A DNA stretch of 64,000 nucleotides from Flavobacteriales bacterium. GTDB lineage: Bacteria; Bacteroidota; Bacteroidia; Flavobacteriales_F; PHOS-HE28. Location: contig JADJWA010000001.1 of NCBI GenBank assembly GCA_016716605.1, positions 2,349,342-2,413,341 on the forward strand. The letters are read 5' to 3'. The notes below the pieces were generated by a model, which saw only the letters and a list, made by a program, of their open reading frames with translations, ran no database searches and had not been told where the DNA came from. Of this stretch, positions 3,748 to 55,755 are shown one piece after another (within the stretch, counting starts at the first letter, position 1; each line of letters begins with the position of its first letter). The position numbers were made by a program, and so were the translations under genes.

Positions 3748-3758
3748 ACCAACGACCG

Positions 3759-7609: not shown

Positions 7610-7696
7610 GTGGTGGGATAGGGGCGCGGCGTGCTTTGTTCTCGTCCTGGTCGAGCACCGATTCGTGGTGCTTGACTAGCATCAAAAGCACCAACG

Positions 7697-13309: not shown

Positions 13310-13348
13310 GCCCTCGAGCGATCAACGGAACAGGAACGAACAAACCCC

Positions 13349-28036: not shown

Positions 28037-28174
28037 TTGTTCCGGCGCAGGTGTTCGTGGCGCGCGAAGGTAACGGGCTGCTGTTCAAAGGACTTTGCTA
28101 GGTTTAGGCATCCAAATTAAAAGCAGGCGTCTGCCAAGCATGCTCACGGCCCGCTGTGGGCAAAGCCAAACTCA

Positions 28175-30421
28175 ATGAAAGCACTCTTACGCGGAATCTT
28201 CCTGCTCCACCTCGCCCTGCTCTTGGCGTCATTGGATGCCCTGGCCATTACAGCGAACATCTCCGTGCAGACCTATCCTACCTGCAATTACCCCAGTGGG
28301 CAGTTGCTGGCATGGGCCACTGGGGGCGTGGGCCCATACACCTATATGTGGAGCACGGGTGAAACTACCGCCACCATCAGTGGTGTCACCCCGGGCTCGT
28401 ACTCGGTCACGGTGACCGACGCGCTGAGCGATCAGGCGACCGCGAACATCGATCTGGTTGGGCAGCCTTACGCCCTAACCGATCTTGGGAATGGCGGCCC
28501 GGAGGGGCTCTGCAATGCGATCACTGGTGTGGTGGTTGATGGACCGGGCATTGACACGTGGGGAGAGCCATACATGGGTCCCTTGCCCTATACCGTCAAT
28601 GGCCAGATGCTGCAGGAGTACATCTATTACGACTTCTTCGGCTCCTTGCCGCTGGATACATTCTATGTAGGCACGTGGTCGGCTGCGGGACAGTACGGAA
28701 CAGGCTTGAACTACACCTTCACCGATGGGGGCGGATGCTCGGGCACGCTTTACGAGTACATCGGCTATCCGGTCGAGTGGCCGGACCTCACCATTCTCGA
28801 CATTGAAGGCGCTTGCGCCAATGGGAGCAATGGGTCAATCACTTTCCAAACAGGCTTGGAGGGGCATAGCCAATCCACGCAGGTGAAGATCCAGGACTTC
28901 AACTTCAACCATATCGCCACTTTCGGGGCAGGCAGCCAGACGTACACGAACACCTATGCCTTGCTCCCTCCTGGCGATTACTTCCTCACGCAGTTCATGA
29001 GTGAATCGGACTTCCTGGTGAGCAGCGGCTGCCAGCAGACCACGCCATTCACCATCCCGGATCTGGGCAATGGCTGCGCGAACGTCCGGGGCGCGCCCTT
29101 CATGGACAACAACGAGGACTGCGCGCGCCAAGGGAATGAGCCTATCGTGCCTGGCGTGGTGCTCGAGATCCTGCCGGGGCCGACGTACGTGCTGAGCAAT
29201 AGCAATGGCTACAGCGTGAACCTGCCGAATGGCGCGTACACGATCGAGCAGCAGAGCGCCATCCTGGATGTGCATTGCAGTGGCGCGCCGATCCCATTCA
29301 CCCTCGCGGGCAGCCAGGCCCCGGTCACGGTGAACATACCCGACACGGCACTGGTACCGATGGATGCGGCCATCAGCATGGCCAGCGGTGCCGCACGGCC
29401 GGGCTTCGAGCTCGCATGCACCGCGCGCATGACCAACCTCACGCTGGCCAGCACGGGGAGCAGCACGCTCACGGTGACCTTCGACCCATTGCTGGGCTAC
29501 ATCTCGTCCACCCCTGCGGGCAATGTGGTCGGCAATACCATCACCTGGAGCATCCCTGCCTTCAGCTCATTCCAGGAGCGCGTGGTCCACATGCGCTTCC
29601 AAGTGCCGCCGGACATCATCCTGCTGGGCACAGACCTGCTCTTCGGCGGCAGCTTCGCCACTGGCAATGCCGATGCTGTGCCAGCGAACAACAGCGCATC
29701 GCTCATCACCACCATCACCGGCAGCTACGACCCGAACGACAAGACGGCGCGCACCAGCAGCGCATGGAGCGACGAGCTATTCTACATCGATGTGGATGAA
29801 TGGATCGACTACACCATCCGCTTCCAGAACACGGGCACGGATACCGCCTTCAATGTGGTGATCACGGACACGGTGCCGCCTGAGCTGGACCTGGCCACCC
29901 TCGTGGTCGGCGCGTCATCGCATCCCAACTCACTCTCCATCCGCGATGGCCGGGTGCTGCGATGGGCTTTCTACAACATCCAGCTGCCCGATAGCAACGT
30001 GAATGAGCCGCGCAGTCACGGATACGTCTCTTTCCGCATTCGTCCGCACCTGCCCATCGCGCCGGGCACCGTGATCGAGAACACCGCCAACATCTTCTTC
30101 GACTTCAACCCGCCAGTGATCACCGAGCCGAGCGTGTTGATGGCGGAGTACAGTACCGAAGTTGAGCCGAATAGAGCAACACCAGGACTCTACGTGTTCC
30201 CGAACCCAGCTACAGATCACCTCACCGTGGGCGGAATGGGTACGACCGATGTGATCAAGGAGATCCGATTGCGCGCAGTGGACGGCCGCATGTTGCGGAC
30301 TATCAATGTAGTTGGTAGCTCAGCGCGTCTGGAGGTGACTGACCTTTCCGCCGGCCTCTACGTGTTGGAGGTCATCTTGGTGACCGATAAGCGATGGACG
30401 ACCACGATCATCAAACCTTGA
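28175..30421 (+). CDS. Array paralog 1: secreted SprB-repeat / DUF11 protein with T9SS type-A CTD
   Basis: Signal peptide; SprB repeat (…GGVGPYTYMWSTGETTATISGVTPGSYSVTVTD…); C-x-V-x-G-x-F-D-N-D-C prealbumin-like module; two DUF11-like modules (ARPGFE…, SYDPNDK…DEWIDYTIRFQNTGTDTAF); and a CTD (LYVFPNPATDHLTV…LYVLEV…IIKP). Confidence 0.85.
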   Translation: MKALLRGIFLLHLALLLASLDALAITANISVQTYPTCNYPSGQLLAWATGGVGPYTYMWSTGETTATISGVTPGSYSVTVTDALSDQATANIDLVGQPYALTDLGNGGPEGLCNAITGVVVDGPGIDTWGEPYMGPLPYTVNGQMLQEYIYYDFFGSLPLDTFYVGTWSAAGQYGTGLNYTFTDGGGCSGTLYEYIGYPVEWPDLTILDIEGACANGSNGSITFQTGLEGHSQSTQVKIQDFNFNHIATFGAGSQTYTNTYALLPPGDYFLTQFMSESDFLVSSGCQQTTPFTIPDLGNGCANVRGAPFMDNNEDCARQGNEPIVPGVVLEILPGPTYVLSNSNGYSVNLPNGAYTIEQQSAILDVHCSGAPIPFTLAGSQAPVTVNIPDTALVPMDAAISMASGAARPGFELACTARMTNLTLASTGSSTLTVTFDPLLGYISSTPAGNVVGNTITWSIPAFSSFQERVVHMRFQVPPDIILLGTDLLFGGSFATGNADAVPANNSASLITTITGSYDPNDKTARTSSAWSDELFYIDVDEWIDYTIRFQNTGTDTAFNVVITDTVPPELDLATLVVGASSHPNSLSIRDGRVLRWAFYNIQLPDSNVNEPRSHGYVSFRIRPHLPIAPGTVIENTANIFFDFNPPVITEPSVLMAEYSTEVEPNRATPGLYVFPNPATDHLTVGGMGTTDVIKEIRLRAVDGRMLRTINVVGSSARLEVTDLSAGLYVLEVILVTDKRWTTTIIKP

Positions 30422-30426
30422 GAACA

Positions 30427-32670
30427 ATGATACCGACCCCTCCAGCCAAGGTCCTGCGTGGTTTGCTTGCGAGCATGTTCATGATCGGTGTTGTTCAGTT
30501 GCAGGCGATCATTGTGAACATCCAGATCACTGCGCACGAGAATTGTTCGTATGCCGATGGAGCCGCGCAAGCAAACGTGAGCGGAGGAGTGCCGCCATAC
30601 ACCTACCTCTGGAGCACGGGAGCCACCACGGCGTCCGTGATCGGACTGAGTGCAGGCCCGATCTCCGTGACCGTGACGGACAGCCAGAGCGACGAGGCCA
30701 CCGCCAACCATACCGTGACCTCTGGGGGGTACCAAATAGTGGCCACCAGCGGTGGTAGTCTGTGCCCTGGTGATCCGTACGGCGGCTACTTGCTCTTCGG
30801 CGGAGTGCCGAATGGCGCCGTCACATTCAGCACACCGTATTTCACGGGCATTTATATGGGTGAACCCATTTACTCCGCGTACTACACCGGCCCGTATGGT
30901 TACAACCCCATCGAACTGCAGTTCATGGATGCGAACGGATGTGCGGGTGTGCTTAGTAGCGGATACAGGCTGGGGCAGCCTACCTGGACCACACCAGTGA
31001 TACTTGATATTCAAGGTGCATGTGCTGGTGGGGCCAACGGGTCTTTACTGGCCGTATTGCAACATAGTCCGACCTATGCACGGACGTGGCATCAACTGAC
31101 CGATGGTGCGGGGACGCTCTTCGGCCCGAATGGAACGATCGTCGGTACGGGTGGAGGTACGTACGGACATTTCGCAACCGAGGCGAACGACCTCGTTCAG
31201 ACCTGGACAGGACTTGCAGCTGGGGATTACTGGTTGACGCAGGTTGCCAACTTCGCCCCGTTCTCCGGATGGATGCCCGGCGGAGGCTGCGGGGATTCGG
31301 TGATGGTGACGATCCCCGATCTGGGCCTTGGTTGCGGTAATGTGAATGGCACGGTGTATATGGACTACAACGAGGATTGCGTGATGGGCGCTGCGGGTTC
31401 AGAAACGCGCGTCCCTGGTGCGCTGCTCGAGTTCCAACCCGGTCCTTATTACACCACAGCGAATGGCAACGGTGCATACAGCATCAACCTGCCGAGTGGG
31501 CCTTACTCCGTGCAGCAGATCGCTGCCGACATCGCGCAGCATTGCCCGGCGCCACCTGCGCCGGTGAACGTGACCGGCACACAGACCTTGAACATCGCGG
31601 ACACTGCCTTGGTAACCATGGACGTGCAGGTGATGATGGCGAGCGGTCCGGCTAGACCGGGCTTCGAGTTGCGTTACACGATCGGCACGACCAACCTCAC
31701 ACCAGCAGCAAGCGGTGCAACGAGTACCGTCATGACCTTCGATCCTGCGGTCGCATTCCTTATTTCCACTCCCGCACCAAGCAGCGTAGTGGGGAACACG
31801 ATCACCTGGAACCAGGCTTCGTTGGGCGCCTTTGTGGAGCGTAGCATCCAGGTTCGCTTCCAAGTGCCGCCTGATGTAGGCCTGATCGGCACCGTTCTGA
31901 ACAGCACGGTCACCGTTTCCACAGCGAACACCGATGCCGTTCCTGCGAACAATGCAGTCGGGCATGCGGTAACGATCACTGCCAGCTTCGATCCGAACGA
32001 CAAGCAGGCCAATACGAGCTCACGCTACAGCGATGAGCTCTACTACATCGATGTGGACGAGTTCATCGACTACACCATCCGCTTCCAGAACACCGGGAAC
32101 GACACGGCCTTTACCGTCATCATCACGGACACGTTGCCGACAACGCTTGATCCCGCGTCCATCATCTGGGGAGCCGCATCGCACAATGTGATGCGCAGCC
32201 TGGTGGGGCAGGGGGTATTGAAGTTCATCTTCCCGAACATCCTGCTGCCAGACAGCAATGCGAACGAAACAGCCAGTCACGGCTTCGTGTCGTTCCGGAT
32301 CAGGCCGCACCTTCCCTTGCTACCCGGCACGGAGATCATCAACATAGCGAACATCTACTTCGACTTCAACCCGCCGGTGATCACCGAGCCGAGCGTGCTA
32401 ACGGCGGAGTTCAGTACGGGAACGCAGCGGCAGTCACTTGAAGCCATTCGCCTGCTGCCGAATCCAGCGAACGACCAGCTGTGGATCTCTTCGGATGGGA
32501 CCATCTATATGATCACCATCATCGCAGCCGACGGAAGAGAGGTTCTGCGCCGCAGAATGCGAACGACCAGCGGGACGATCGATGTCTCAGGACTTCGGGC
32601 AGGTTCGTTCTTCCTCGTTGCCATCTTGGATAATGGGAGCATCGCTCACGAACGCTTCATCAAACAATGA
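30427..32670 (+). CDS. Array paralog 2 (same architecture)
   Basis: Same domain order as paralog 1. The ATG lies 5 bp after the paralog 1 stop. The ORF-table start at 30394 overlaps the upstream gene and was rejected. Confidence 0.85.
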   Translation: MIPTPPAKVLRGLLASMFMIGVVQLQAIIVNIQITAHENCSYADGAAQANVSGGVPPYTYLWSTGATTASVIGLSAGPISVTVTDSQSDEATANHTVTSGGYQIVATSGGSLCPGDPYGGYLLFGGVPNGAVTFSTPYFTGIYMGEPIYSAYYTGPYGYNPIELQFMDANGCAGVLSSGYRLGQPTWTTPVILDIQGACAGGANGSLLAVLQHSPTYARTWHQLTDGAGTLFGPNGTIVGTGGGTYGHFATEANDLVQTWTGLAAGDYWLTQVANFAPFSGWMPGGGCGDSVMVTIPDLGLGCGNVNGTVYMDYNEDCVMGAAGSETRVPGALLEFQPGPYYTTANGNGAYSINLPSGPYSVQQIAADIAQHCPAPPAPVNVTGTQTLNIADTALVTMDVQVMMASGPARPGFELRYTIGTTNLTPAASGATSTVMTFDPAVAFLISTPAPSSVVGNTITWNQASLGAFVERSIQVRFQVPPDVGLIGTVLNSTVTVSTANTDAVPANNAVGHAVTITASFDPNDKQANTSSRYSDELYYIDVDEFIDYTIRFQNTGNDTAFTVIITDTLPTTLDPASIIWGAASHNVMRSLVGQGVLKFIFPNILLPDSNANETASHGFVSFRIRPHLPLLPGTEIINIANIYFDFNPPVITEPSVLTAEFSTGTQRQSLEAIRLLPNPANDQLWISSDGTIYMITIIAADGREVLRRRMRTTSGTIDVSGLRAGSFFLVAILDNGSIAHERFIKQ

Positions 32671-34856
32671 TCATGCGCCTCTTCCCGGTCGTTTTCGCGA
32701 TGCTCACCTTCCTTGGTGGGCATGCGATGTTCGTACAAGTGAATACCGTGATCCCTGAAACCTGCGGCAACAGCAATGGCCGGGTGGATGTTCAGGTGGG
32801 CGGAGGAGTGGAGCCGTATTCGTTCTCCTGGTCCAACGGTGCCACCTCGGAGGATCTGATGGACGTGCCGGGGGGCACCTATACCCTTACGGTCACGGAC
32901 GACCTGGGCGCACAGGCGAGTGAGCAAGTGACCGTACAGAGCTATGGGTTCCTGCCCTATCAGGAGGGAGGACAGTACTACCCGCTTCCGGATGGCATGG
33001 GCGGTATGATCTGGGGCGGCGCTTGCGCAGGCCAATGCAACGGCCAAATGGCCATGCCGCTGGAACTGTTCGGTGGCACGCCCCCCATTACGATTGATTG
33101 GAACGCGTCAAGCAACATCTCATGGGTGGGCATGACCCAGGACCTCATGCCCATTTACGGCGGCTTCTGTTTGGGCGAAACGGTGTCCTACACATACTCC
33201 GACGCGCTCGGATGCACTGGCTCCGGCTCGCACACCATCATCGGCGTGGACAGCGTGCCAAGCATTGCAGCGGTGCATGGCGCGTGCGCGGGCGGTGCCA
33301 ACGGCCGTGTCGAGATCCACTGCCAACAGATGCCATGGGTGCCGCCTACGATGAGGATCTTCCGGAATGGGAACCAGGTGGCCGCGCCGACCTATCCGTG
33401 GAACGCGCCACAGACGATCCAGGTGCAGGGTCTGCTCGCTGGCGATTACGAGCTCCGCATGGACTGGTACGGCGCCTGTCCGGCCGTTGTGCCGTTCACC
33501 GTTCCTGTGCTGACCGTGCCCTGCGGCACAGTGAGTGGGACGAACTTCCTCGATGACGATCAGGACTGCCAGCCGGGTGCGGGCGAGATCCGAATGCCTT
33601 ATCAGGTGCTCAACATCCAGCCAGTGGATGAGTGGGTGCTCACCGGAGGGAATGGCGAGTTCTTGTTCGCGCTGCCCAACGGCAACTATACGCTGGAGCA
33701 TACAGCACCTGGCATCGTGCCGCTGTGCCCATTGCCGCAGCCGATACCCTTTGCCGTGAATTCCAACGCCTCGGTGATCCAACTGGCTGATAGCAGCACG
33801 CTGCCCCTTGACATCGCCCTATACGCGGGTGGTGGTGTGGCACGGCCGGGTTTCACAACGACCCACCAGTTAACCGTAAGGAATCTCAGCGCGAAGCTCA
33901 GCGGTGCGGTGCAGGTAGTGCTCAACCATGATCCAGTGCTCAATTACCTATCGGCTTCGCCTACCCCGACCTCCGTCGCTGGCAGTACCCTCACATGGGA
34001 TCTGCCTCAGCTCACGGCCTTCGCTCAGCTTGGCATCTGGGTGCAGTACGATGTGCCTGTGGCCACAGCCCTCGGCACCGTGCTCGCTTCTTCCATCACG
34101 GCTGCTTGTGCCCTCGCGGACAACGACCTCTCGAACAATGCCATCGGTATCACGCAGGTGGTGACGGGCAGCTATGACCCCAATGACAAGACCGCGCGCA
34201 CAAGCTCGGGTTGGAGCGATGCGCTGTACTACCTGGATCAGGATGAATGGATCGACTACACGATCCGCTTCCAGAACACCGGCACCGATACGGCCTTCAC
34301 CGTGGTGATCACCGATACGCTCGCTGCGGAATTCGACATGGCGAGTTTTCATCAGGGCACGGCCTCGCATGCCTTCGATGTGGCATTCATGCCGGGCCGT
34401 GTGGTGGAGTGGACCTTCACTGATATCCTGCTTCCGGACAGCAATGTGAATGAGGCGGCGTCGCATGGACTGGTATCGTTCCGGATCCGACCCGTGCAAC
34501 CGCTATCGCCCGGCATCGTGATCGAGAACATCGCCAACATCTATTTCGATTTCAACCCGCCGGTGATCACCGAGCCGAGCGTGCTGGTGGCGGAGTTCTC
34601 CACAAGCGTGACGGAGCAGCATGGAAGCGGGCTCATGCTTGCACCGGTACCTGTGAGCGATCAGCTCTCGATTTCCAGTGCTCGGATGATCGAGCGGGTC
34701 AGCATCCTTGCCACCGATGGCCGCATGGTGAAACAAGCGAACCTGCGCGCGAGCAACGGTGGCATCGAAGTGAAGGAACTCACCAGCGGGGCTTATTTGC
34801 TGATCGCTGAATTCACCAACGGAACAACAGCACGCGAGCGATTCGTAAAGCACTGA
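32667..34856 (+). CDS. Array paralog 3
   Basis: Its start overlaps the previous stop (ATGA). It carries SprB, DUF11 and T9SS CTD motifs. Confidence 0.85.
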   Translation: MIMRLFPVVFAMLTFLGGHAMFVQVNTVIPETCGNSNGRVDVQVGGGVEPYSFSWSNGATSEDLMDVPGGTYTLTVTDDLGAQASEQVTVQSYGFLPYQEGGQYYPLPDGMGGMIWGGACAGQCNGQMAMPLELFGGTPPITIDWNASSNISWVGMTQDLMPIYGGFCLGETVSYTYSDALGCTGSGSHTIIGVDSVPSIAAVHGACAGGANGRVEIHCQQMPWVPPTMRIFRNGNQVAAPTYPWNAPQTIQVQGLLAGDYELRMDWYGACPAVVPFTVPVLTVPCGTVSGTNFLDDDQDCQPGAGEIRMPYQVLNIQPVDEWVLTGGNGEFLFALPNGNYTLEHTAPGIVPLCPLPQPIPFAVNSNASVIQLADSSTLPLDIALYAGGGVARPGFTTTHQLTVRNLSAKLSGAVQVVLNHDPVLNYLSASPTPTSVAGSTLTWDLPQLTAFAQLGIWVQYDVPVATALGTVLASSITAACALADNDLSNNAIGITQVVTGSYDPNDKTARTSSGWSDALYYLDQDEWIDYTIRFQNTGTDTAFTVVITDTLAAEFDMASFHQGTASHAFDVAFMPGRVVEWTFTDILLPDSNVNEAASHGLVSFRIRPVQPLSPGIVIENIANIYFDFNPPVITEPSVLVAEFSTSVTEQHGSGLMLAPVPVSDQLSISSARMIERVSILATDGRMVKQANLRASNGGIEVKELTSGAYLLIAEFTNGTTARERFVKH

Positions 34857-34862
34857 CCGATC

Positions 34863-37043
34863 ATGACCAAAGCATTACTCGGAACCACATTCCTACTCGC
34901 GAGCGCACAGGCCTTCGCGCTCACCGTGAATCTGCAAGTGCTGAACGAGACCTGCACCTATGCGAATGGGTCTGTGTATGCATCCGTCTCCGGCGGGGTG
35001 CCGCCCTATACCTACCTCTGGGGCGGCGGTGAGACCACGGAAGGAATAACCAACCTGAGCCCAGGTACCTACAGTGTTACCGTTACCGACTTCGTGGGCA
35101 CGCAAGTGACCGAGCAAGCCACCGTGATCAGCGTGGACTACGGAGCGTTCGACTACAACTTCCCGCACGCCTATTGCCCCGGCCAGAATTACCATGAGTT
35201 CTTCTTTCCCCCCCAGCCGACTGGGGTGCCAGCCGATGTGAGCCCCTGGTCCGCTTCGCAGGGGTTCATTGATGTGGTGCCGCCTCCGGCAGGTCCGGGC
35301 AACTATTACCTGAATCCCGGCCCGATCCCTCCAGGTAGCGGACAGATGGTGACCTTTTGGGATGTGAACGGATGCACCGGTACATTGAGCTTCACGGCGG
35401 GGTACCCGATCACTTCATGGCCCAGTTTCGCCGTGGTGGACGTGCAGGGCTCGTGCGCCAACGTGGCTTCGGGCCAGGTCACTTTCACCACTACTCCCGA
35501 ACCGACGACCGATACGTACTACATACTGAAATCCGAAGGGAGCAATGAGTTTGAGGGATGGGCGAACAATTTCCAATCGGTTGCTCCCAATGTGTATGCA
35601 TTCGTCGGCTTGGAACCCGGGAACTATTACCTGATGCACCGTCTGGGTATTACGCTTTCGTTGCTCCAGGGCGCTGGCTGTGCCTCGGACAGCATCTTGG
35701 TAACGATACCTGACCTGGGGCCCACTTGCGGCAGCATTTCCGGCAGCACCTACATGGATTACAACAGCGATTGCCTGGACACCGAAGCGAACGCTTCGAA
35801 CGTGGTAGTGGAGATCCAGCCGGGTCCCTATTACACCACCAGCGGCGGCAGCTATTTCGTGGTGGTGCCGAACGGCAGCTATACCATGACCACCAGCGCA
35901 CCTGCCATCGCACAGAGCTGCCCCGCAGCAGCCACTGTCAACGGCAACACGGCGATCGCCAACATCGGTCACCAGCCCACGATCCCGTTGGATGTGGCCA
36001 TCAGCCTGGCATCCGGCCCAGCGCGCCCCGGTTTCGAGCTGCACTACACCATGCACGTGGAGAACCTCTCGTCCTCATCGAGCGGTGCCACCACCACCAC
36101 GCTCACCTTCGATCCAGGGCTGACCTTCATCAGTGCAACGCCAACACCGGTGGTCAGCGGCAATACGCTCACCTGGAACCAATCGGCGCTCAGCCTCTTC
36201 CAGGACCGTGACTATTTCATCCGCCTGCAAGTGCCGCCGGATGTGGGCTTGATCGGAACGGACCTGCTCGCAAGCGCCGGAGTCTCCACGGCGAACACCG
36301 ATGGCGAGCTAAGCAATAACACCGCTTCTGCCGCGATCACGGTCACGGGCAGCTACGACCCGAACGACAAGACCGCATTCACCAGCACGCGCGCGAGCGA
36401 GTCTCTTTATTTCATCAATGAGGACGAGTGGATCGATTACGTGATCCGCTTCCAGAACACGGGTACGGATACGGCCTTTAACATCGTGGTCACGGACACG
36501 TTGCCACCCACCTTGGACCCAGCGACGATCTCACTGGTCACTGCATCGCACCAGCACACGTGGAACGTGCAAGGGCAAGGCACGCTCAAGTTCATATTCC
36601 CGAACATCCTGCTGCCGGACAGCAACGTGAACGAACCGCAGAGCCATGGGCTCATCAGCTTCCGCATCCGACCGCACTTGCCCATCGCTCCTGCCACTGT
36701 GATCGAGAACATCGCCAACATCTATTTCGACTTCAACCCGCCGGTGATCACCGAGCCCAGCGTTCTGGTGGCGGAGTTCAGCACGGGGATGGAGGAGATG
36801 AGCACGGACCACCTTCAAGTCTACCCCGTTCCGGCGCGAACACAATTGAACGTTCATTCGACCACACTGCTGACGCGGCTGTCGATCCTGACCTTGGATG
36901 GGCGCATGGTCCGCGAAGAGCCGATACAAGGACACCGCGCCTTGGTGGATCTGCAAGGGCTTCCTTCGGGTGCCTACCTCCTCCGGGTCACGGACACTGA
37001 AGGCAACCAGTTGCACCATTCATTCCTCATCGAGCACGAATAA
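34863..37043 (+). CDS. Array paralog 4
   Basis: 6-bp gap before the gene. Same architecture. It contains an in-frame C7 tract at about 35208-35214. Confidence 0.85.
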   Translation: MTKALLGTTFLLASAQAFALTVNLQVLNETCTYANGSVYASVSGGVPPYTYLWGGGETTEGITNLSPGTYSVTVTDFVGTQVTEQATVISVDYGAFDYNFPHAYCPGQNYHEFFFPPQPTGVPADVSPWSASQGFIDVVPPPAGPGNYYLNPGPIPPGSGQMVTFWDVNGCTGTLSFTAGYPITSWPSFAVVDVQGSCANVASGQVTFTTTPEPTTDTYYILKSEGSNEFEGWANNFQSVAPNVYAFVGLEPGNYYLMHRLGITLSLLQGAGCASDSILVTIPDLGPTCGSISGSTYMDYNSDCLDTEANASNVVVEIQPGPYYTTSGGSYFVVVPNGSYTMTTSAPAIAQSCPAAATVNGNTAIANIGHQPTIPLDVAISLASGPARPGFELHYTMHVENLSSSSSGATTTTLTFDPGLTFISATPTPVVSGNTLTWNQSALSLFQDRDYFIRLQVPPDVGLIGTDLLASAGVSTANTDGELSNNTASAAITVTGSYDPNDKTAFTSTRASESLYFINEDEWIDYVIRFQNTGTDTAFNIVVTDTLPPTLDPATISLVTASHQHTWNVQGQGTLKFIFPNILLPDSNVNEPQSHGLISFRIRPHLPIAPATVIENIANIYFDFNPPVITEPSVLVAEFSTGMEEMSTDHLQVYPVPARTQLNVHSTTLLTRLSILTLDGRMVREEPIQGHRALVDLQGLPSGAYLLRVTDTEGNQLHHSFLIEHE

Positions 37044-37051
37044 CCGCCGCC

Positions 37052-39301: not shown

Positions 39302-39313
39302 CAACCACTAGTC

Positions 39314-43800: not shown

Positions 43801-43803
43801 ACC

Positions 43804-46026
43804 ATGCGTGCTTTCTCCCTTCTCGCCTCATTCGCCTTGGCGACCGGTGCATCCGCGTTCAACATCCAGTTGACACCCTATCCCGAGACATGCGGTAACG
43901 GCAATGGATACGTGACCGTGTACATCGATGGGCCGGCGATGGAACCGCTCACATATGCTTGGTCGGACGGGTCAGATGGTCCGGAGCTCATGAATGTGGG
44001 CGCTGGCACCTACAGCCTCACCGTCACTGACTTCTTTGGTGAATGGGCGACCGCCCAGGTGACCGTGATCAACCAGCCAGGGCTCACCAGCATCGGCGGT
44101 GGGCAAGTGAGTTATGGCGTTGATGATCTGTTCGGCCACACCGGCGTGGCCTGCCCGGGAGCGTGCAACGGAGCCCGCTATATGTACTTTTTCGACGGAA
44201 CGGCTCCATACACCGTGACATGGTCGGACCCATCCGTCACCTTCTACGCCAACTTCTTGGGCATGCCTGTTTTCACGGATTTCTGTTCCGGGACCGTGTA
44301 TGACTACACCGTGACGGACGCCTTCGGTTGCCCTGGAAGCGGCAGCTTCATCGACACCTTGATCAACCCGGCCTATCCATCGGAGATCACTTTGGTTGAA
44401 GGTGCGTGCGGCGGTGGGGCGAATGGAGCGATCGAGATCTGGATCAACCCGGCATGGTTCGATGGTGGCGGGAATTGGCTATCGCTTTGGCAGGGTGGGG
44501 TGGACATCACCTTGCAAGTGGGCTATCAATTCCTCGGTGGCAACATAATCCGTTATTCTGCATTGGCGCCTGGTGCCTATGAGTACCGGCGGATCGCTGG
44601 CTCACCAGGATTGCCGTCTGAGTGCATGGAGATCATTCCTTTCGTGATCGAGGACCTCGGTTCAGCTTGCGGGAATGTTTCGGGCACCTTGTTCATCGAT
44701 CATGACCAGGATTGCATACAGGGTGCGAACGATCCTGGCGTGCCCTTCAGAGTCCTGAACATCGAGCCCGGGTCGGAACTGGCCATTACCAGTACGCACG
44801 GGGAGTACTCCCGGAATCTTCCGCTCGGTTCATACACCCTGGCGCCGAGCGGATCCGATCTCTATCCGCTGTGCCCATCCTCTTCGCCAGTCCCATTCGA
44901 CTTGACCGTTCCTGTTCCGCTGGCGGTGCTAGACCTGGCGGACAGCAGCCTGGTCGATCTGGATCTGGAGACGTTCATTTCAGCTGGTCCGGCCAGGCCG
45001 GGATTCGTTCATCAAGTGCAGGGGCAGGTGCGCAACATGAGTGGGCAGCTATCCTCATCAGTGGATGCCACCTTCACCTTCGACCCATCGCTGTCGTTCA
45101 TCGGCGCCGCGCCGACACCGACAAGCGTGGTGGGTAACGTGATCATATGGAGCGACCTGCCGCCGATGGTCGGCTTTGACATGCTCGACTTCTCCGTCGT
45201 ACTGCAGGTTCCACCGGATCCCGGACTGCTCGGAACCGCCATCACACACGTTCTCGAAGCGACGCAATCGTTCACAGAAGCCGATCCAGGCAACAACATG
45301 GCAACTTGGAACGATGTGATCACGGGCAGCTACGACCCCAACGACAAGCTCGCTCGGACCAGCAGTGGCCAAAGTGACTCGCAGTACTTCATTGCACAGG
45401 ATGAATGGATCGACTACACGATCCGGTTCCAGAATACGGGAACGGATACGGCCTTCACGGTCGTGATCACCGATACGCTTTCAGCATGGCTGGACATGGC
45501 CACGTTCGAGCAGGGCGCGGCATCGCACGGGTTCAGCATCCGGTTCAAACCCGGGAGGGTGGTGGAATGGCGCTTTGCCGGCATCGCGCTTCCCGATAGC
45601 ACCACAGACGAGGTAGCGAGCCATGGATTCGTCACCTTCCGCATCTGGCCGCAATTGCCATTGTTGCCCGGCACCGTGATCGAGAACATCGCGAACATTT
45701 ACTTCGACTTCAACCCGCCGGTGATCACCGAGCCGAGCGTGCTGGTGGCGGAGTTCAGCACGGGGGTGAATGATGCATTGCCTTCTGAAGCATTGCTGAG
45801 CCCGAACCCTGCGATGGACCGTGTGCGCTTGAGCGAGGCATCGGTCGCGGCCAAGGTGCTCCGGTGGGAAGTCGTTTCCTCTTCGGGTGCGACCTTGGAA
45901 CAAGGCAGCGGCCCCATCCCCGCGTCGGGGATCGCCATCGGGCACTTGGAGGATGGCGCATACTTCCTGCGCATGCACACGGTGAATGAGACCCGCAACG
46001 AACGCTTCATCAAGATCGGCCAATGA
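43804..46026 (+). CDS. Array paralog 8
   Basis: 3-bp gap before the gene. Same architecture. Confidence 0.85.
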   Translation: MRAFSLLASFALATGASAFNIQLTPYPETCGNGNGYVTVYIDGPAMEPLTYAWSDGSDGPELMNVGAGTYSLTVTDFFGEWATAQVTVINQPGLTSIGGGQVSYGVDDLFGHTGVACPGACNGARYMYFFDGTAPYTVTWSDPSVTFYANFLGMPVFTDFCSGTVYDYTVTDAFGCPGSGSFIDTLINPAYPSEITLVEGACGGGANGAIEIWINPAWFDGGGNWLSLWQGGVDITLQVGYQFLGGNIIRYSALAPGAYEYRRIAGSPGLPSECMEIIPFVIEDLGSACGNVSGTLFIDHDQDCIQGANDPGVPFRVLNIEPGSELAITSTHGEYSRNLPLGSYTLAPSGSDLYPLCPSSSPVPFDLTVPVPLAVLDLADSSLVDLDLETFISAGPARPGFVHQVQGQVRNMSGQLSSSVDATFTFDPSLSFIGAAPTPTSVVGNVIIWSDLPPMVGFDMLDFSVVLQVPPDPGLLGTAITHVLEATQSFTEADPGNNMATWNDVITGSYDPNDKLARTSSGQSDSQYFIAQDEWIDYTIRFQNTGTDTAFTVVITDTLSAWLDMATFEQGAASHGFSIRFKPGRVVEWRFAGIALPDSTTDEVASHGFVTFRIWPQLPLLPGTVIENIANIYFDFNPPVITEPSVLVAEFSTGVNDALPSEALLSPNPAMDRVRLSEASVAAKVLRWEVVSSSGATLEQGSGPIPASGIAIGHLEDGAYFLRMHTVNETRNERFIKIGQ

Positions 46027-48245
46027 CCAGGAACAGGACCCTCTCCTTCGCGCTCGCACTATTCGGATCGTTACGCATCGTAGCACTGCAAGTGGATGTG
46101 ATCAACCCCGTCCAATCAGCGTGCGGCTATCCGACTGGCATCATGGAAGCCTTGATCAGTGGCGGTGTTCCGCCGTACACGATCGCGTGGAACACGGGCG
46201 CCACCACAGAGATCATCACGGGTCTGTTGCCCGGCACCTACAGCGTAACGGTGACGGATTTCGTGGGTACGCAGGCTTTCGGGCAAGGCGATGTGGGCGT
46301 GACCAACATGCAGCAAGGCGGACAGACGTACGCCAACCTCGCGCATTGCCCTGGAGGATTTCCCATGGCGGAGCTCACGCTGTTCAATCAAGCCCAATAC
46401 GGTGCATACATCTGGGGTGCGCCACCGTTCACGATCACCGGACCCGCAGAGGTCCAAGGTGTTTCCGTGGTGCAATGCACGAATTGCTCCGGCATGGATT
46501 CCCTGGTCCGTGTTGAGATGAACGTTCCCTCGGGATCCTTTCAGACGATCACCTGGGAGGATGCGAACGGCTGCCCCGGCGAGAGCCAGGTGGTCATGAG
46601 CACGGAGGCGGTGTGGCCCAGTGTCTTTGTGTACGACGTGCAGGGATCGTGCGCAGGCGGCAACAACGGGACCTTCGCTTTCTCGGTCAGTCCGCTATCG
46701 TCTCAATTGATGACCCTGCGCATCTACCGGCCGAGCGGCAACTTGCTCTCGTCGGTTCCTATCGGACCAGGCACGGCCGGTGCGCATGGCCAGCTTTCTC
46801 CGGGGACCTATGTGCTGAAGGTCGTTGCCGAGACCAACGGTCCTTTCGATGATGAGCTCTGCTGGGACCAGACCGTCGCAGTGATCGACGACTTGGGCAA
46901 CGGCTGCGCGAATGTGAACGGTCCGGTCTTCATCGATGGCAATGCCAACTGCACCTGGCAGTTCAACGAGAACAAGATCCCGCAGGCCATCGTGGAGTTC
47001 ACGCCCGGGCCTTACTATGCCACCTCGAACGCCATCAGCGGCTACAGCACGAACCTGCCGCTCGGCACCTACGACCACACGGTGATCCATCCCGGTGCAC
47101 AGCAGGAATGCCCCGGTCCCTTCACGTTGGATGGCTCACAGAGCAGCGTGACCAGGCCGATCGGCTGTTCATCGCTTTTCCCGCTGGATGCCCAGGTGAC
47201 CGGATGCAACGGACCGGCACGACCCGGCTTCCAGCTCTTGTATGGGCTGAACCTTCGCAACAACACGGCTGCGAACGCAGGTGCCAGCACGCTCACCTTC
47301 GAGTTCGATCCGGTGCTGAGCTTCGTTTCGGCATCGCCCACGCCGTCGTCGGTGGTTGGCAACACCGTCACATGGAGCCTGACTGGCATTGGCGCTTATG
47401 CGAGCACCTATCGCTTCGTGCATTTACAGGTGCCACCGGACATCGGTCTCATCGGCACCACGCTCAATGCCACAGCCACGGTTTCCACCACGAACACCGA
47501 TGCTGTTCCGGCCAACAATGCGTGGACATCGCAGCAAACCGTCACGGCCAGCTACGACCCCAACGACAAACTGGCAAGCACCAGCACCGGCCAAAGCGAT
47601 GAGGTGTACTTCATCGATCAAGATGAATGGATCGACTACGTGATCCGATTCCAGAACACCGGCACGGACACCGCTTTCCATGTGGTGGTCACCGACACGC
47701 TGCCATCCACTCTTGATCCAGCCACCATCGAGGTGGGCGCGGCCTCGCACGCGATGAACTGGAACCTCACCGGCCATGGCATCCTGCGGTTCAACTTCCC
47801 GAATATCCTGCTGCCCGATAGCAACGTGAACGAGCCCGCGAGCCACGGATTCGTGGGCTTCCGCGTTAGGCCTCGATTGCCGATCGAGCCAGGCACCCTC
47901 ATCGAGAACATCGCCAACATCTATTTCGACTATAACCCGCCGGTGATCACCGCGCCGAGCGTGCTGGTGGCGGAGTTCAGCACGGGGGTGGGGGAGGCCC
48001 GTGCGCAGGAGCTGGTTCTGATGCCCAACCCGACGAATGGCGAACTGCAGGTGCAGTTGCCTGAGCAAGGACATGACGGAGGTACCATCCGCATACTTGC
48101 CATGGACGGACGTGCTGTGCTTGAACTGCGGTCCAACGATAACCGAACCCTTCTGGACCTTTCCGGTCTTGGCGCTGGACCTTACCTGTTGGAATGGACC
48201 AGTATCGGCGGTACACGGGTGCTGAGGCCCTTCGTGCGACAATGA
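46023..48245 (+). CDS. Array paralog 9
   Basis: ATGA overlap with paralog 8. Same architecture. Confidence 0.85.
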   Translation: MTRNRTLSFALALFGSLRIVALQVDVINPVQSACGYPTGIMEALISGGVPPYTIAWNTGATTEIITGLLPGTYSVTVTDFVGTQAFGQGDVGVTNMQQGGQTYANLAHCPGGFPMAELTLFNQAQYGAYIWGAPPFTITGPAEVQGVSVVQCTNCSGMDSLVRVEMNVPSGSFQTITWEDANGCPGESQVVMSTEAVWPSVFVYDVQGSCAGGNNGTFAFSVSPLSSQLMTLRIYRPSGNLLSSVPIGPGTAGAHGQLSPGTYVLKVVAETNGPFDDELCWDQTVAVIDDLGNGCANVNGPVFIDGNANCTWQFNENKIPQAIVEFTPGPYYATSNAISGYSTNLPLGTYDHTVIHPGAQQECPGPFTLDGSQSSVTRPIGCSSLFPLDAQVTGCNGPARPGFQLLYGLNLRNNTAANAGASTLTFEFDPVLSFVSASPTPSSVVGNTVTWSLTGIGAYASTYRFVHLQVPPDIGLIGTTLNATATVSTTNTDAVPANNAWTSQQTVTASYDPNDKLASTSTGQSDEVYFIDQDEWIDYVIRFQNTGTDTAFHVVVTDTLPSTLDPATIEVGAASHAMNWNLTGHGILRFNFPNILLPDSNVNEPASHGFVGFRVRPRLPIEPGTLIENIANIYFDYNPPVITAPSVLVAEFSTGVGEARAQELVLMPNPTNGELQVQLPEQGHDGGTIRILAMDGRAVLELRSNDNRTLLDLSGLGAGPYLLEWTSIGGTRVLRPFVRQ

Positions 48246-48276
48246 TGATCCTGATGCGAAACCTGGTTGAATTACC

Positions 48277-50973
48277 ATGATGAACAAGATCCTCTTGAGC
48301 ATTATCTGCTTGGTCGGCCACCTGACCGCAGCAGCCGTTACCGTGAATATCTCGGTGAACTGGCAACCGCTGTGTACCGGCGCCAATGGTGAATTGAGCG
48401 CGTATGCAAGTGGAGGGGTGGGTCCATACACGTTCCTGTGGTCGAATGGGGCAACCAGCGAGACGATATCGAACCTGGAAGCCGGTACCTATAGCGTTAC
48501 CGTGACCGATGGCAACAGCGACCAAGCGACAGATGAGATCGAGTTGACCTCCATCGACTACTCGGACCCCAACTATTCGGGTTGGGGCACCAGGCCGTAT
48601 TGTCCCGGGGTGTATCCGGATGCGCCGTTCATCATCATCGTACCCGAGCTGAGCATGGTTCAATGGGGTCCACCACCGTACTTCCTGAACGGCGAGTTCA
48701 TGGATGTGGTCAACCCGTTCGAAAATTGGACGAACTACCTGGGCGCCGTGCCGGGAACTCCCGGGGTCACCTACAACATAACCTTCCAGGATGGCAATGG
48801 ATGCACGGGCCAATGGCCTGTAACTCCTGTTGGTCCGGTCCAATGGCCGGTGCTGGGGATCCTCAATATCCAGGGCTCCTGCGACAACTTCGACACAGGC
48901 AGCATCACGATCGCTTACGGCGGCACCAACGCCACCGAGACCAGTTACACGCTGGAGAATGTGAGCATCCAACAGATGATAGTGGCGCCTGGCAATGGGC
49001 AGTGGTTGGGGCCGAACCCCGGTACGATACAGCTCAACGAACTCCCTCCGGGTGATTACCGCTTCAGGCAGCGCATCATCGGACTGTGGGAAAGCCCCGA
49101 GTGTTACGATGAGCTCTTGTTCACCATTCCCGACCTGGGTCCCACTTGCGGCAGAGTGCAAGGACAGGCCTTCGTGGATTACAACGAGAACTGCACCAGG
49201 CAGTCGAACGAACCGTTCGCGCCGGGGCAGATCATTGAAGTGTTGCCGGGGCCCTATTACGCGACCACGGCCGGGTCGGGAGCGTATTCGCTGATACTCC
49301 CCTTCGGCAACTACACCTTGACCCAGCAAAGCACCCAGCTGGCCGAGCATTGTGCCGGTGGCCCGATCCCCTTCACCATCGCCGCATCACCGAACATCGT
49401 CACCCGCAACCTGCCGGACACCTCGTTGGTGGGCCTTGATGTGCAAGCCATGCTCAGCAGCGGTGCTGCCCGGCCTGGGTTCGAATTCCAGTACGCCATC
49501 AACGTGCGCAACCTGACCCCAGCGGCAAGCGGCGCCACCACGGTCACGTTCACCTTCGACCCCACCCTTACTTACCTCTCCGCCACGCCCACCCCCAGCA
49601 GTGTAAGCGGCAACACCATCACGTGGAACCAAGCCCAACTCACGGCATGGCAGTCGCGCAGTTACACCATCAGCTTCCAGGTACCGCCCGATGTGGGACT
49701 GCTGGGTTATGAATTGATGGCCACGGCCAACGTTTCCACCACCAATTCAGACGGCAACCCGGCCAACAACAGCGCCACCAACCTGCGCACCATCACCGGC
49801 GCATACGACCCCAATGACAAGCTCGCCTATACCAGCAGCGGCAGCACCGATGTTTGGGATATCAACGACGACGAGTGGATCGATTACACCATCCGCTTCC
49901 AGAACACCGGGACGGACACGGCCTTCCATGTGGTGATCACCGACACGCTGCCTGCCAATCTTGATCCGGGAAGCATCGTCATGGGAGCTGCCTCGCACAC
50001 GTTCTCGTGGGAATTACACGGCGAAGGAACACTGAAGTTCTACTTCCCGAGCATCCTGCTGCCCGACAGCAACATCAACGAGCCGCGCAGCCACGGCCTC
50101 GTCGGTTTCCGTATCCGCCCGCGATTGCCGCTATTGCCCGGCGATGAGATCGAGAACATCGCCAACATCTACTTCGACTTCAACCCGCCGGTGATCACCG
50201 AGCCGAGCGTGCTTGTAGTGCCTCTGCCAGGCGCGCTGGTGGCACCGCGCGTGCTGCTCGGTGGCCCATACGTGCAGGCCACGCAGCGTATGAACGATGG
50301 CCTGCGCACCGCTGGCCTGGTTCCGCTCGCCGAACCATACAGTGCACTCGGCTACAACCATGTCGGCGGTGGGGGAGAGAGCGTTGCACCGGCCGTGCTG
50401 GCAGTCACGGGCGACAACGCCATCGTGGATTGGGTGGTGGTTGAACTGCGCAGTGCCACGTCGCCCTATTCGGTGCTGGCCACGCGCAGCGCATTGGTGC
50501 AGCGCGATGGGGATGTGGTGGCCACGAATGGTACCGGTCCGATCACGTTCAGCCAGGGGAATGGCAACTACCGGATCGCCATCCGGCACCGCAACCACTT
50601 GGGGGCCATGACCAATGCCGCTGTGACCTTGAACACGAGCACGGCCACGCTGGTGGACCTTTCGGTTCCGGCCACGGCCACCTATGGCACCAGCGCGCGC
50701 AAAGCCGTGGGCACCCGCATGGTGCTTTGGAGCGGTGACATCAATTTTGACGGAATCGTGAAGTATGTCGGCTCAAACAATGACCGTGACCCCATCCTGA
50801 CTGCAATAGGGGGCAGCACGCCCACCACGGTGGTGAGCGGCTCCTATCATGGGACGGACGTGAACCTCGATGGACAGCTGAAGTACGTCGGAACGAACAA
50901 CGACCGCGACATCATCCTGCAGACCATCGGGGGCTCGGTGCCTACCGCGGTCCGACATGAGCAACTGCCTTAA
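48277..50973 (+). CDS. Array paralog 10: same N-terminal/DUF11 body, but the T9SS CTD is replaced by a ~250-aa tail with two D-x-N-x-D-G-x-V-K-Y-V-G Ca-binding-like repeats
   Basis: 898 aa. It is colinear with paralogs 1-9 up to …FDFNPPVITEPSVLV. After that it diverges (VPLPGALVAPRVLLGGPY…DINFDGIVKYVGSNNDRD…DVNLDGQLKYVGTNNDRD…). Confidence 0.8.
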   Translation: MMNKILLSIICLVGHLTAAAVTVNISVNWQPLCTGANGELSAYASGGVGPYTFLWSNGATSETISNLEAGTYSVTVTDGNSDQATDEIELTSIDYSDPNYSGWGTRPYCPGVYPDAPFIIIVPELSMVQWGPPPYFLNGEFMDVVNPFENWTNYLGAVPGTPGVTYNITFQDGNGCTGQWPVTPVGPVQWPVLGILNIQGSCDNFDTGSITIAYGGTNATETSYTLENVSIQQMIVAPGNGQWLGPNPGTIQLNELPPGDYRFRQRIIGLWESPECYDELLFTIPDLGPTCGRVQGQAFVDYNENCTRQSNEPFAPGQIIEVLPGPYYATTAGSGAYSLILPFGNYTLTQQSTQLAEHCAGGPIPFTIAASPNIVTRNLPDTSLVGLDVQAMLSSGAARPGFEFQYAINVRNLTPAASGATTVTFTFDPTLTYLSATPTPSSVSGNTITWNQAQLTAWQSRSYTISFQVPPDVGLLGYELMATANVSTTNSDGNPANNSATNLRTITGAYDPNDKLAYTSSGSTDVWDINDDEWIDYTIRFQNTGTDTAFHVVITDTLPANLDPGSIVMGAASHTFSWELHGEGTLKFYFPSILLPDSNINEPRSHGLVGFRIRPRLPLLPGDEIENIANIYFDFNPPVITEPSVLVVPLPGALVAPRVLLGGPYVQATQRMNDGLRTAGLVPLAEPYSALGYNHVGGGGESVAPAVLAVTGDNAIVDWVVVELRSATSPYSVLATRSALVQRDGDVVATNGTGPITFSQGNGNYRIAIRHRNHLGAMTNAAVTLNTSTATLVDLSVPATATYGTSARKAVGTRMVLWSGDINFDGIVKYVGSNNDRDPILTAIGGSTPTTVVSGSYHGTDVNLDGQLKYVGTNNDRDIILQTIGGSVPTAVRHEQLP

Positions 50974-51182
50974 GTGAAGAATTGACCGGCACAAGCAACC
51001 ATTTCCTTGCCGCCCGTCATTGGAGTGCTCTTACCCAAAGACCCGCACCATGGACCGCACCGTGCCTTCGGCAAGCAAGACCCGCACCTCGGACCGCTCC
51101 GCCCTGATCCGCACCAGCATGCTCCTCTTCGCCCTGCTGGCCGTGGCCTCGTTCGCGCTCGCCCGCGTAGTGGCCTAGCCCC

Positions 51183-53584: not shown

Positions 53585-53729
53585 GCCCGGCGGAATGCGA
53601 TGATGCGGCCAAAGATGGCCGAAAGCCCCGGGATCAGGCTAGGCGAGAATGGGGGCGTGGGCCGGGGCGGGCCTCGGCCCACCCCCCACCCTAAAGGGGA
53701 GATTCCCAATAGGCTCTTACTTTCGGACC

Positions 53730-54134
53730 ATGCCTGCCGTTGAACGCGTATGCCTGGAGTGCGGGGAGAAGATCGCGGGGCGCACCGATAAGCGCTTCTG
53801 CAGCGATGCCTGCCGCAACCTTTATCACTACCACACCAACAACGCGCCCATCAACTATGTGCGCAACGTGGTGAATGCCTTGAAGCGCAACCGGCGGATC
53901 CTATCCGAGCTGAACACCGGGCCGGAGGGCAAGACCAAGGTGCATCGCGACAAGCTGATCGAGAAGGGCTACACCTTCACCTACCACACCAACACGCACC
54001 GCACCAAGGCTGGCAATACCTACGTGTTCTGCTTCGAGCAGGGCTTCCTGGAACTGGGCGAGAATTGGTTCATGCTGGTGCGCCGCGACGAGTACCTGGA
54101 GCGCTCTGGCGACATCGCGCGCCGGGAGAACTGA
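53730..54134 (+). CDS. Hypothetical zinc-ribbon protein (CxxC…CxxxC)
   Basis: 134 aa from MPAVERVCLECGEK…CSDACRN. A TACTTTCG -7-like element lies 5-10 bp upstream. Confidence 0.55.
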   Translation: MPAVERVCLECGEKIAGRTDKRFCSDACRNLYHYHTNNAPINYVRNVVNALKRNRRILSELNTGPEGKTKVHRDKLIEKGYTFTYHTNTHRTKAGNTYVFCFEQGFLELGENWFMLVRRDEYLERSGDIARREN

Positions 54135-54903: not shown

Positions 54904-54937
54904 AACTGGAAAGGGGGCCAAATATAGACGGGGGCGC

Positions 54938-55624: not shown

Positions 55625-55755
55625 GTGCGGATTGCTGGCGGCAAAGGTGCCGGGTGAGGTCGGCAACCGTGTTAAGGCGCGATCAAATGTAGGTTAAGGC
55701 CCTTGGGTGCTCCAGCGTCCTTGGTGGTGCGCTCGCGCTACATTCGCGGCCATAA

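Follow-up and report, generated by a model that had tools for sequence, protein, structure and literature searches.

Within a 64-kb stretch of DNA of about 60% GC (referred to here as the window), taken from a metagenome-assembled genome (MAG) of a member of the Flavobacteriales, ten long open reading frames (ORFs), designated g1 to g10, follow one another on the forward strand between positions 28175 and 50973 and constitute an array of genes for secreted-type proteins that are homologous over their full length. From g1 to g10, and with the start of g2 placed at 30427, the successive gaps are +5, -4, +6, +8, +12, -4, +3, -4, and +31 bp, and the junctions g2/g3, g6/g7, and g8/g9 are ATGA overlaps. 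Pairwise identity among the ten proteins is 34-46%, far beyond chance, with g3, g7, and g8 forming a subclade, and a search of the window with a family profile returned no member beyond the ten. A preliminary description of this DNA, prepared from the sequence alone, had proposed ten same-strand paralogs with gaps of -4 to +31 bp and three ATGA overlaps, and both the layout and the paralogy are borne out by the ORF coordinates and the full-length alignment; its size range of 729-898 amino acids (aa) is corrected here to 726-898 aa, the shortest product being that of g4. All ten ORFs are intact, each with a start codon and a signal peptide. A Shine-Dalgarno-like sequence is not evident upstream of the array gene starts, as is usual in Bacteroidota. 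In the National Center for Biotechnology Information (NCBI) annotation, g4 and g10 are each entered as "DUF11 domain-containing protein." The genes are listed below; L001, L032, and L060 denote related loci in other assemblies.

28175-30421, forward strand: g1, 748 aa; signal peptide, SprB-type immunoglobulin-like (Ig) domain, variable domain, second Ig domain (Ig2), transthyretin-like domain, DUF11, DUF7619 (aa 519-651), and a type IX secretion system (T9SS) C-terminal domain (CTD) of type A; L001 orthologue 91% identical.
30427-32670, forward strand: g2, 747 aa (758 aa from the longest-ORF start at 30394); architecture of the g1 type, with type A CTD.
32667-34856, forward strand: g3, 729 aa; g1-type architecture; ATGA overlap with g2; L032 orthologue 93% identical.
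34863-37043, forward strand: g4, 726 aa (MBK9148035.1); g1-type architecture; L032 orthologue 97% identical.
37052-39301, forward strand: g5, 749 aa; g1-type architecture; best CTD match of the ten (PF18962, 44.2 bits).
39314-41587, forward strand: g6, 757 aa; g1-type architecture; CTD under curated cut-offs; missing in L032.
41584-43800, forward strand: g7, 738 aa; g1-type architecture; ATGA overlap with g6; only the CTD end remains in L032.
43804-46026, forward strand: g8, 740 aa; g1-type architecture; SprB undetected and CTD under cut-off; orthologues in L032 (97%) and L060 (92%).
46023-48245, forward strand: g9, 740 aa; g1-type architecture; ATGA overlap with g8.
48277-50973, forward strand: g10, 898 aa (MBK9148041.1); head and stalk of the g1 type, without a T9SS CTD.

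That a MAG is the source, and that frameshifted copies occur in related loci of long-read MAGs, raises the question of whether the array reflects mis-assembly or the artificial expansion of a repeat. The copies are, however, too different from one another to be collapsed or expanded (34-46% aa identity, with a longest exact run of 50 nucleotides [nt]), the ten ORFs are intact, and an independent assembly, that of the closest relative (L032), keeps g3, g4, g5, g8, g9, and g10 in this order at 89-95% nucleotide identity, lacking g6 and most of g7. The probability of an artefact is negligible.

The order of domains is shared by the ten proteins: a signal peptide, the SprB-type Ig domain, a variable domain, the SprB-like Ig2, a transthyretin-like domain, DUF11 (also called CLIPPER), DUF7619 and, in g1-g9, the type A CTD. 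In 10 of 10 proteins, the sequence shows the features of a signal peptide: an n-region with basic residues, then a hydrophobic stretch and a cleavage-type motif of small residues. An AlphaFold2 model of g10, based on 63 homologues (mean predicted local distance difference test score [pLDDT] 86.9, predicted template modeling score [pTM] 0.70), is all beta apart from the signal helix at residues 3-16, which precedes the first strand, and places sandwiches at approximately residues 22-90, 91-190, 193-284, 291-383, 389-505, and 515-647, followed by the tail. Each protein is best read as a rod built from some seven beta sandwiches, of the kind termed a fibrillar adhesin. A Foldseek search of the Protein Data Bank (PDB) with the whole model returned only generic multi-Ig proteins (integrins, complement, titin) at template modeling scores of about 0.1.

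Assignment of the individual domains from Pfam and NCBIfam profiles, which the preliminary description had put forward as its own check, upholds the SprB, DUF11, and CTD types, with the reservation that SprB (PF13573, gathering score 28 bits) exceeds its cut-off in only four of the ten (g2, g3, g4, and g10). In g1, g5, g6, g7, and g9 it scores 20-27 bits, and the profile finds no match on g8; the segment is nonetheless homologous across all ten proteins in the alignment. The first Ig domain matches Ig-like phage decoration domains in the PDB, Ig2 is related to the SprB-type Ig by profile-profile comparison (hhalign, probability 91%), and the transthyretin-clan matches (CarboxypepD_reg and SdrD_B in Pfam) are weak. 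The preliminary description had also counted two DUF11-like modules; the first is indeed DUF11 (PF01345), above its gathering cut-off in nine of the ten proteins and in agreement with the CLIPPER fold, and the second belongs to a Pfam family of its own, DUF7619 (PF24595), recognized in all ten (E ~1e-40; 134.7-146 bits against a cut-off of 27) over nearly the full length of the profile.

DUF7619 was created in a survey of 2025 as a predicted CnaA-like isopeptide domain in which the Lys, Asp, and Asn are K657, D695, and N764 of L7WFS8; the same work gives the solved structure of a DUF11 ("CLIPPER") domain (9IFR), describes isopeptide domains of the DUF7619 and DUF11 types as stalks of fibrillar adhesins that co-occur with Por_secre_tail, and records that some DUF11 domains lack the isopeptide bond (PMC12617251). 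In the array proteins, the residues K523, D565, and N636 (g1 numbering) do not vary among the ten paralogs or across the 63 homologues, and fall in beta-strands predicted by the AlphaFold2 model. Their spacing (K+42, K+113) is close to that published (K+38, K+107), the correspondence being made through profile coordinates rather than a direct alignment with L7WFS8. K523 is the only invariant Lys of the protein: no invariant or near-invariant Lys occurs between residues 368 and 523, conserved Lys is lacking in both the DUF11 and the transthyretin-like modules, and one isopeptide is thus predicted per protein. The conservation of the triad suggests that DUF7619 forms such a bond.

Conservation along the proteins is markedly uneven. 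Mean identity among the ten is 40% in the SprB Ig, 23% in the variable domain, 24.5% in Ig2, 38% in the transthyretin-like domain, 43% in DUF11, 67% in DUF7619, and 32% in the CTD, so that the steepest contrast lies between the head (residues 96-290) and DUF7619. The greater divergence of the N-terminal halves, already remarked upon in the preliminary description, amounts to a mean identity of 31%, compared with 49% for the C-terminal halves.

The same description had ascribed a type A T9SS CTD to every protein. With curated cut-offs of 27 bits for PF18962 (Por_Secre_tail) and 23 bits for TIGR04183, this stands for g1-g5, g7, and g9, which pass at least one of the two: PF18962 in g1 (31.8 bits), g2, g3, g4, g5, and g9, and TIGR04183 in g2 (30.2 bits), g3, g4, g5, g7, and g9. 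In g6 and g8, this domain can be aligned with the other CTDs from end to end and scores below both cut-offs, and in g10 neither Pfam nor NCBIfam detects a T9SS CTD.

A scan of species-representative genomes yielded at least 463 loci of the family, from which 69 distinct loci were kept. All 69 derive from uncultured MAGs, nearly all labeled Flavobacteriales and many from wastewater plants, and arrays in which 2 to 11 or more copies share a strand are frequent. The array occupies the same slot, next to genes for inositol monophosphatase (IMPase), Lgt, and a MiaB-like protein, in at least 20 loci, with a content that varies from 1 to at least 12 copies: one gene and a 3' remnant in L050, two genes in L033, three in L030, four in L009, six each in L028 and L041, eight or more in L032, and at least 12 in L005 and L060, which are overlapping stretches of one contig. 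When the heads of 175 near-complete members were clustered at 50% identity or more, 84 head types were obtained, and the arrays differ in composition as well as in order (for example, g4, t5, g9, g10, g8, ..., g6 in L060 and t17, g2, g1 in L001). Orthologues of g1, g2, g6, and g7 are found in assemblies other than L032.

In L050, from a close relative, the slot (6420-9401) consists of a 3' remnant of a g4-like gene, comprising the end of DUF7619 and the CTD and lying against the intergenic region upstream, and of one g5 orthologue after it. The remnant looks like a deletion scar, as though the array can collapse to one gene.

These comparisons separate two arrangements between which the preliminary description had left the choice. 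Copy number, head type, and order vary in a way that agrees with a panel of heads carried on one common stalk. An obligate heteromeric fiber or coat, in which the ten products would co-assemble in fixed proportions as in pilus or S-layer operons, fits poorly and is improbable: the slot in relatives holds 1, 2, 3, 4, 6, 8 or more, or at least 12 copies with shuffled heads, the closest relative (92-97% identical) dispenses with g6 and most of g7, and the proteins g1-g9 each carry a signal peptide and a CTD of their own, which is what independent cargo would show. A similarity to cohesins, which might have hinted at mutual binding, is generic for CnaA/CARDB-like sandwiches and not pinned to one domain.

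The L032 array also reveals how units are gained or lost. Two blastn alignment blocks overlap by 437 bp in this locus, and a track of informative sites places in its hybrid gene a switch from g5-like to g7-like sequence within the following segment:

38950-39052, forward strand: crossover zone in g5, encoding the end of DUF7619 (FDFNPPVITEPSVLVAEFST) at the CTD junction; the partner zone in g7 lies at approximately 43452-43554.

A switch of this kind is a hallmark of unequal homologous recombination between paralogs. The longest exact runs between paralogs, of up to 50 nt, sit in this same DUF7619/CTD-junction segment, and identity at four-fold synonymous sites is 0.525 in DUF7619 and 0.40 in DUF11, compared with 0.344 at saturation, which the other regions have reached. 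The synonymous excess in DUF7619 fits gene conversion. Between orthologues, the synonymous divergence (dS) forms a mosaic along single genes, from 0 to more than 2, an example being a swapped CTD in g3. Recent duplication was considered as an origin of the array and is ruled out by the saturation of synonymous sites outside DUF7619.

Every domain, the variable head included, is under purifying selection. Between the window and L032, the pooled ratio of nonsynonymous to synonymous divergence (omega) is 0.107 for SprB, 0.146 for the head, 0.122 for the transthyretin-like domain, 0.164 for DUF11, 0.112 for DUF7619, and 0.19 for the C-terminus, and values are similar in more distant pairs of orthologues; an omega of about 0.15 rules out diversifying selection on the heads. 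Heads that are diverse between paralogs and conserved within orthologous lineages are what distinct, maintained specificities would be expected to produce; neither decaying silent copies nor an antigenic arms race would be expected to do so. Phase or antigenic variation, with one expressed copy served by donor copies or by a switchable promoter, might be entertained on account of the recombination in the conserved 3' segment and of the very high head diversity across genomes. It is nevertheless very improbable: none of the ten copies is truncated and each keeps its start codon and signal peptide, the heads are constrained as described, identities of 34-46% with saturated synonymous sites outside DUF7619 indicate that heads are not exchanged, and there are neither flanking inverted repeats upstream of the array nor an invertase or recombinase gene in the window. 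The earlier view that the array is not an archive of silent cassettes is upheld by the same ten intact copies, by omega values of 0.11-0.19, and by the lack of invertible-promoter repeats and of a recombinase.

The packing of the genes makes it plausible, as judged from the sequence, that the ten form a single polycistronic unit. Tight packing is a family-wide trait, since the median gap over 115 junctions in related arrays is 5 bp, with 86 gaps of -4 to +35 bp and 14 ATGA overlaps. The sole sizeable non-coding stretch upstream of the array is the following:

28037-28174, strand unassigned: divergent intergenic region of 138 bp between the MiaB/RimO-like gene and g1; candidate promoter region.

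At 28100-28107 this region contains TAGGTTTA, which comes close to the Bacteroidota -7 box, and no inverted repeats were found bracketing it. The exact box, TAnnTTTG, occurs neither in the 22.8-kb array nor in the 138-bp region, and its absence from the array is negative support only for a single unit. Sites resembling sigma-70 promoters are fewer in the array than in shuffled sequence, a null result that is expected for Bacteroidota, and terminator-like sites show no excess, falling within the shuffle expectation. Elsewhere in the window, exact TAnnTTTG boxes lie at 22284-22291, 54919-54926, and 55684-55691 on the minus strand, all intergenic and just 5' of minus-strand genes (for a DtxR-like repressor, an unnamed ORF, and an OmpR-type response regulator), which suggests that this genome of 60% GC still uses the Bacteroidota-type -7 box.

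The tenth gene departs from the others at its 3' end, where the type A CTD is replaced:

50218-50970, forward strand: C-terminal 251 aa of g10, an X-module and dockerin-like dyad with two DxNxDGxxKYxGxxNDRD repeats, ending ...VPTAVRHEQLP.

Modeled by itself, this tail gives a pLDDT of 95.6 and a pTM of 0.92, and its fold agrees with that of the X-module/dockerin dyads of cellulosomes. It is the most novel element of the locus, absent from the models of Pfam and NCBIfam, neither of which returns a family for it even at E<=10. A search with the tail alone retrieved 1,780 proteins; 119 aligned carriers are 53-64% identical to the g10 copy and all end in ...VPT..R..QLP, while their N-terminal regions bear no relation to one another (delta-60/DUF5122 propellers, PKD, LamG, a cohesin domain, S8 peptidase, Kelch, and GGxGRGD repeats). 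An exhaustive profile search with the tail found 4,581 representative proteins at E<=1e-30. Among the 150 best carriers, proteins of 266-3,228 aa, the match reaches the last residue in 147, the exceptions being P0141, P0283, and P0361. Nine long carriers display subtilase, MopE-like, HYR, BACON/PKD/lipase, GEVED/PKD, and Kelch domains in Pfam, and a type A T9SS CTD (Por_Secre_tail) is present in 0 of 129 carriers, namely the 120 listed and the nine long ones scanned with Pfam.

The relationship between tail and CTD is illustrated by a near-orthologue of the g10 body in L060 (86% identity over residues 1-647), which ends in a normal CTD. The two tails have accordingly been exchanged at the junction that serves as a crossover site. 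The tail-bearing member is the last family gene in 6 of 9 related arrays with at least two members, as it is in the window. The module is termed dockerin-like, rather than dockerin, because it has no Pfam dockerin match and a search with the cohesin region of one carrier found no cohesin partner for it. It may be a tethering module that needs a cohesin-like partner. More tentatively, its strictly C-terminal position, its conservation on thousands of unrelated secreted proteins, the lack of a CTD in the 129 carriers, and the CTD swap in the near-orthologue raise the possibility of an undescribed class of C-terminal sorting or anchoring modules in Flavobacteriales. If this were true, tethering of the cohesin-dockerin type would extend to a large surface proteome in a Gram-negative phylum, and docking of g10 onto a surface scaffold or onto CTD-anchored neighbors would be one possibility.

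The locus as a whole is best explained, with a probability of roughly 0.6, as a co-expressed repertoire of T9SS-type proteins resembling fibrillar adhesins, which evolves by birth and death and is remodeled by recombination at the stalk/CTD junction. The ten genes would be co-transcribed from the 138-bp region upstream of g1, and their products would pass through Sec at the inner membrane and through the T9SS at the outer one. The CTD would then be removed and the protein tethered at its C-terminus (or released), with the variable N-terminal head directed outward and the membrane-proximal stalk stiffened by the Lys-Asp-Asn isopeptide of DUF7619; g10 would instead be held through its X-module/dockerin-like dyad by a cohesin-like partner. 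A cell could in this way display several binding specificities at once, for example toward flocs, polymers, or cell surfaces in activated sludge, and unequal homologous recombination, probably with gene conversion, in the conserved stalk segment would remodel the repertoire.

Several observations weigh against this explanation. The head (residues 91-290 of g10) matches no Pfam family at E<=10, adhesive and lectin families included, so that "binding" is read from architecture alone. The CTDs of g6 (18.2 and 20.5 bits) and g8 (17.8 and 19.4 bits) stay below both cut-offs, no T9SS machinery gene lies in the window, and the only sign there of T9SS use outside the array is a pair of further CTD proteins (7697-14374). 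A search with the cohesin region of the tail carrier P0171 found nothing that could serve as partner to the g10 tail. Promoter scans are weak tests in a Bacteroidota genome of 60% GC, and the synonymous excess in DUF7619 could in part reflect local codon or nucleotide constraint. Finally, Flavobacteria often release their type A CTD proteins instead of anchoring them.

This last point leads to the alternative that the array encodes soluble binding or scavenging proteins, secreted by T9SS and then released, whose heads would capture polymers or nutrients instead of attaching the cell. Besides the many released CTD proteins of Flavobacteria, the failure of the heads to match any adhesin family and the origin of the organism in polymer-rich metagenomes of the activated-sludge type speak in its favor. 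Surface-anchored fibrillar adhesins, by contrast, typically have a rigid stalk of several domains that includes one of the isopeptide type (PMC12617251), the structural neighbors of the proteins are cell-wall-anchored adhesins and pilins, and the dockerin-like tail of g10 suggests tethering. In Porphyromonas gingivalis, cargo with a type A CTD is anchored via anionic lipopolysaccharide (A-LPS) (PMC9143113). Release as the general fate of the array proteins is on balance unlikely, and the surface-displayed repertoire is the reading retained here.

Upstream of the array, on the minus strand, lie the radical-SAM MiaB/RimO-like gene (26639-28036), lgt, and the genes for IMPase and a TonB-dependent receptor; downstream, and convergent to it, are a DltD/SGNH-like gene and a gene for an MBOAT acyltransferase. 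The remainder of the window is housekeeping and regulatory in content, and no recombinase, mobile element, or T9SS component was found in it. A small ORF follows g10 directly:

51050-51178, forward strand: small ORF of 42 aa, starting 76 bp after g10, with a basic N-terminus and one hydrophobic, transmembrane-like helix (LIRTSMLLFALLAVASFALA).

Eight related loci (L032, L050, L041, L028, L030, L039, L033, and L037) keep it immediately behind the final gene of the array, irrespective of the copy number of the array and of what lies downstream. Its stop position is conserved, and substitutions number 42, 22, and 61 at codon positions 1, 2, and 3, a third-position bias of the coding type. No nameable match to its product was found. 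The 42-aa ORF may be the terminal gene of the unit. At 53649-54134 on the forward strand is a gene for a 161-aa cysteine-rich protein (CxxC ... CxxxC) that has neither a signal peptide nor a Pfam match; in L028 and L041, which lack the MBOAT pair, homologues 87% identical to it come straight after the array and the small ORF.

The two further CTD proteins are an FG-GAP repeat protein of 1,870 aa (7697-13309) and an adjoining protein of 341 aa, encoded together at 7697-14374 on the forward strand and both bearing a type A T9SS CTD; genes for a LuxR-type response regulator and a histidine kinase with tetratricopeptide repeats (3043-7545, forward strand) lie upstream of the pair. The preliminary description had suggested a search of other Bacteroidota for similar arrays next to FG-GAP giants. 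A linkage of the array to this FG-GAP giant was examined and dropped, as the two are 15 kb apart, separated by genes for aconitase, a transporter, and other housekeeping functions, and show no shared synteny; the neighbors conserved in relatives are the IMPase, Lgt, and MiaB-like genes.

Arrays of this kind were not found described in any paper in the literature searched, which agrees with the earlier judgment that the system is not a described one. That judgment does not hold for the architecture, which is that of a fibrillar adhesin with an isopeptide stalk and a T9SS tail (PMC12617251). The array proteins belong with the isopeptide-stalk fibrillar adhesins in respect of both stalk and CTD. 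They differ from those surveyed in having a short stalk with one copy per domain instead of long tandem repeats, a DUF11 without the conserved Lys, and hence one predicted isopeptide per protein, and heads without a known adhesive domain; ten-gene arrays, moreover, are a subject outside that survey (PMC12617251).

Two other systems, the sdrCDE locus and the KLIKK array, may be viewed as analogues in organization. The sdrC-sdrD-sdrE locus of Staphylococcus aureus, encoding members of the Sdr family of microbial surface components recognizing adhesive matrix molecules (MSCRAMM), is a three-gene tandem locus of a Gram-positive organism whose products are anchored by sortase through LPXTG motifs, and its spacing is not known to be operon-like. 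The present array has ten genes and T9SS tails, and homology between the two is limited to the transthyretin/CnaB-like fold. The KLIKK array of Tannerella forsythia resembles the present one as a set of T9SS cargo genes at one Bacteroidota locus whose N-terminal functional parts are unrelated or divergent and whose C-terminal region is strikingly conserved, and the whole of it is present or absent between close relatives (PMC4404884). Its products are proteases that differ in catalytic class, each gene paired with one for an inhibitor (PMC9890683). The array in the window, unlike KLIKK, has no catalytic domain and no interleaved genes, and its most conserved segment is the stalk domain rather than the CTD (32% identical).

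The SprB repeat (PF13573) takes its name from the gliding-motility adhesins SprB and RemA of Flavobacterium johnsoniae. The array proteins, like these, are probably T9SS-exported surface proteins of Flavobacteriia and have an SprB-type Ig-like domain at the N-terminus. SprB is a giant protein composed mostly of repeats, whereas the array proteins, of some 740 aa, have a CTD of type A and one or two domains of the SprB type. The CTD of SprB is of type B, and SprB depends on a partner of the PorP/SprF kind (PMC9143113); no sprF-like gene is adjacent to the array. The tail of g10 is likened in fold to the X-module/dockerin (XDoc) dyad at the C-terminus of the scaffoldin CipA of Clostridium thermocellum (PDB 3KCP and 5G5D), from which it differs by its lack of a Pfam dockerin match, by the longer loop DxNxDGxxKYxGxxNDRD, and by its host, a Gram-negative member of the Bacteroidota with an outer membrane; binding of calcium and of cohesin by the tail is putative.

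The lineage concerned is one of uncultured, high-GC Flavobacteriales that are common in wastewater-type metagenomes, where the attachment of cells to flocs and particles matters for the settling of sludge and the turnover of polymers. For such organisms, the array offers a testable picture of a T9SS surface repertoire, in which independent heads would be carried on a shared stalk of the isopeptide type and a conserved coding segment would also be the place where recombination inserts, deletes, and reorders units and exchanges their C-terminal ends. The exchange at the end of g10 amounts to a natural experiment, with a type A CTD and a dockerin-like module at the equivalent position of the same body. 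Should the dockerin-like tail prove to be a second route of sorting or anchoring, inventories of the Bacteroidota secretome that are centered on T9SS would be missing thousands of proteins.

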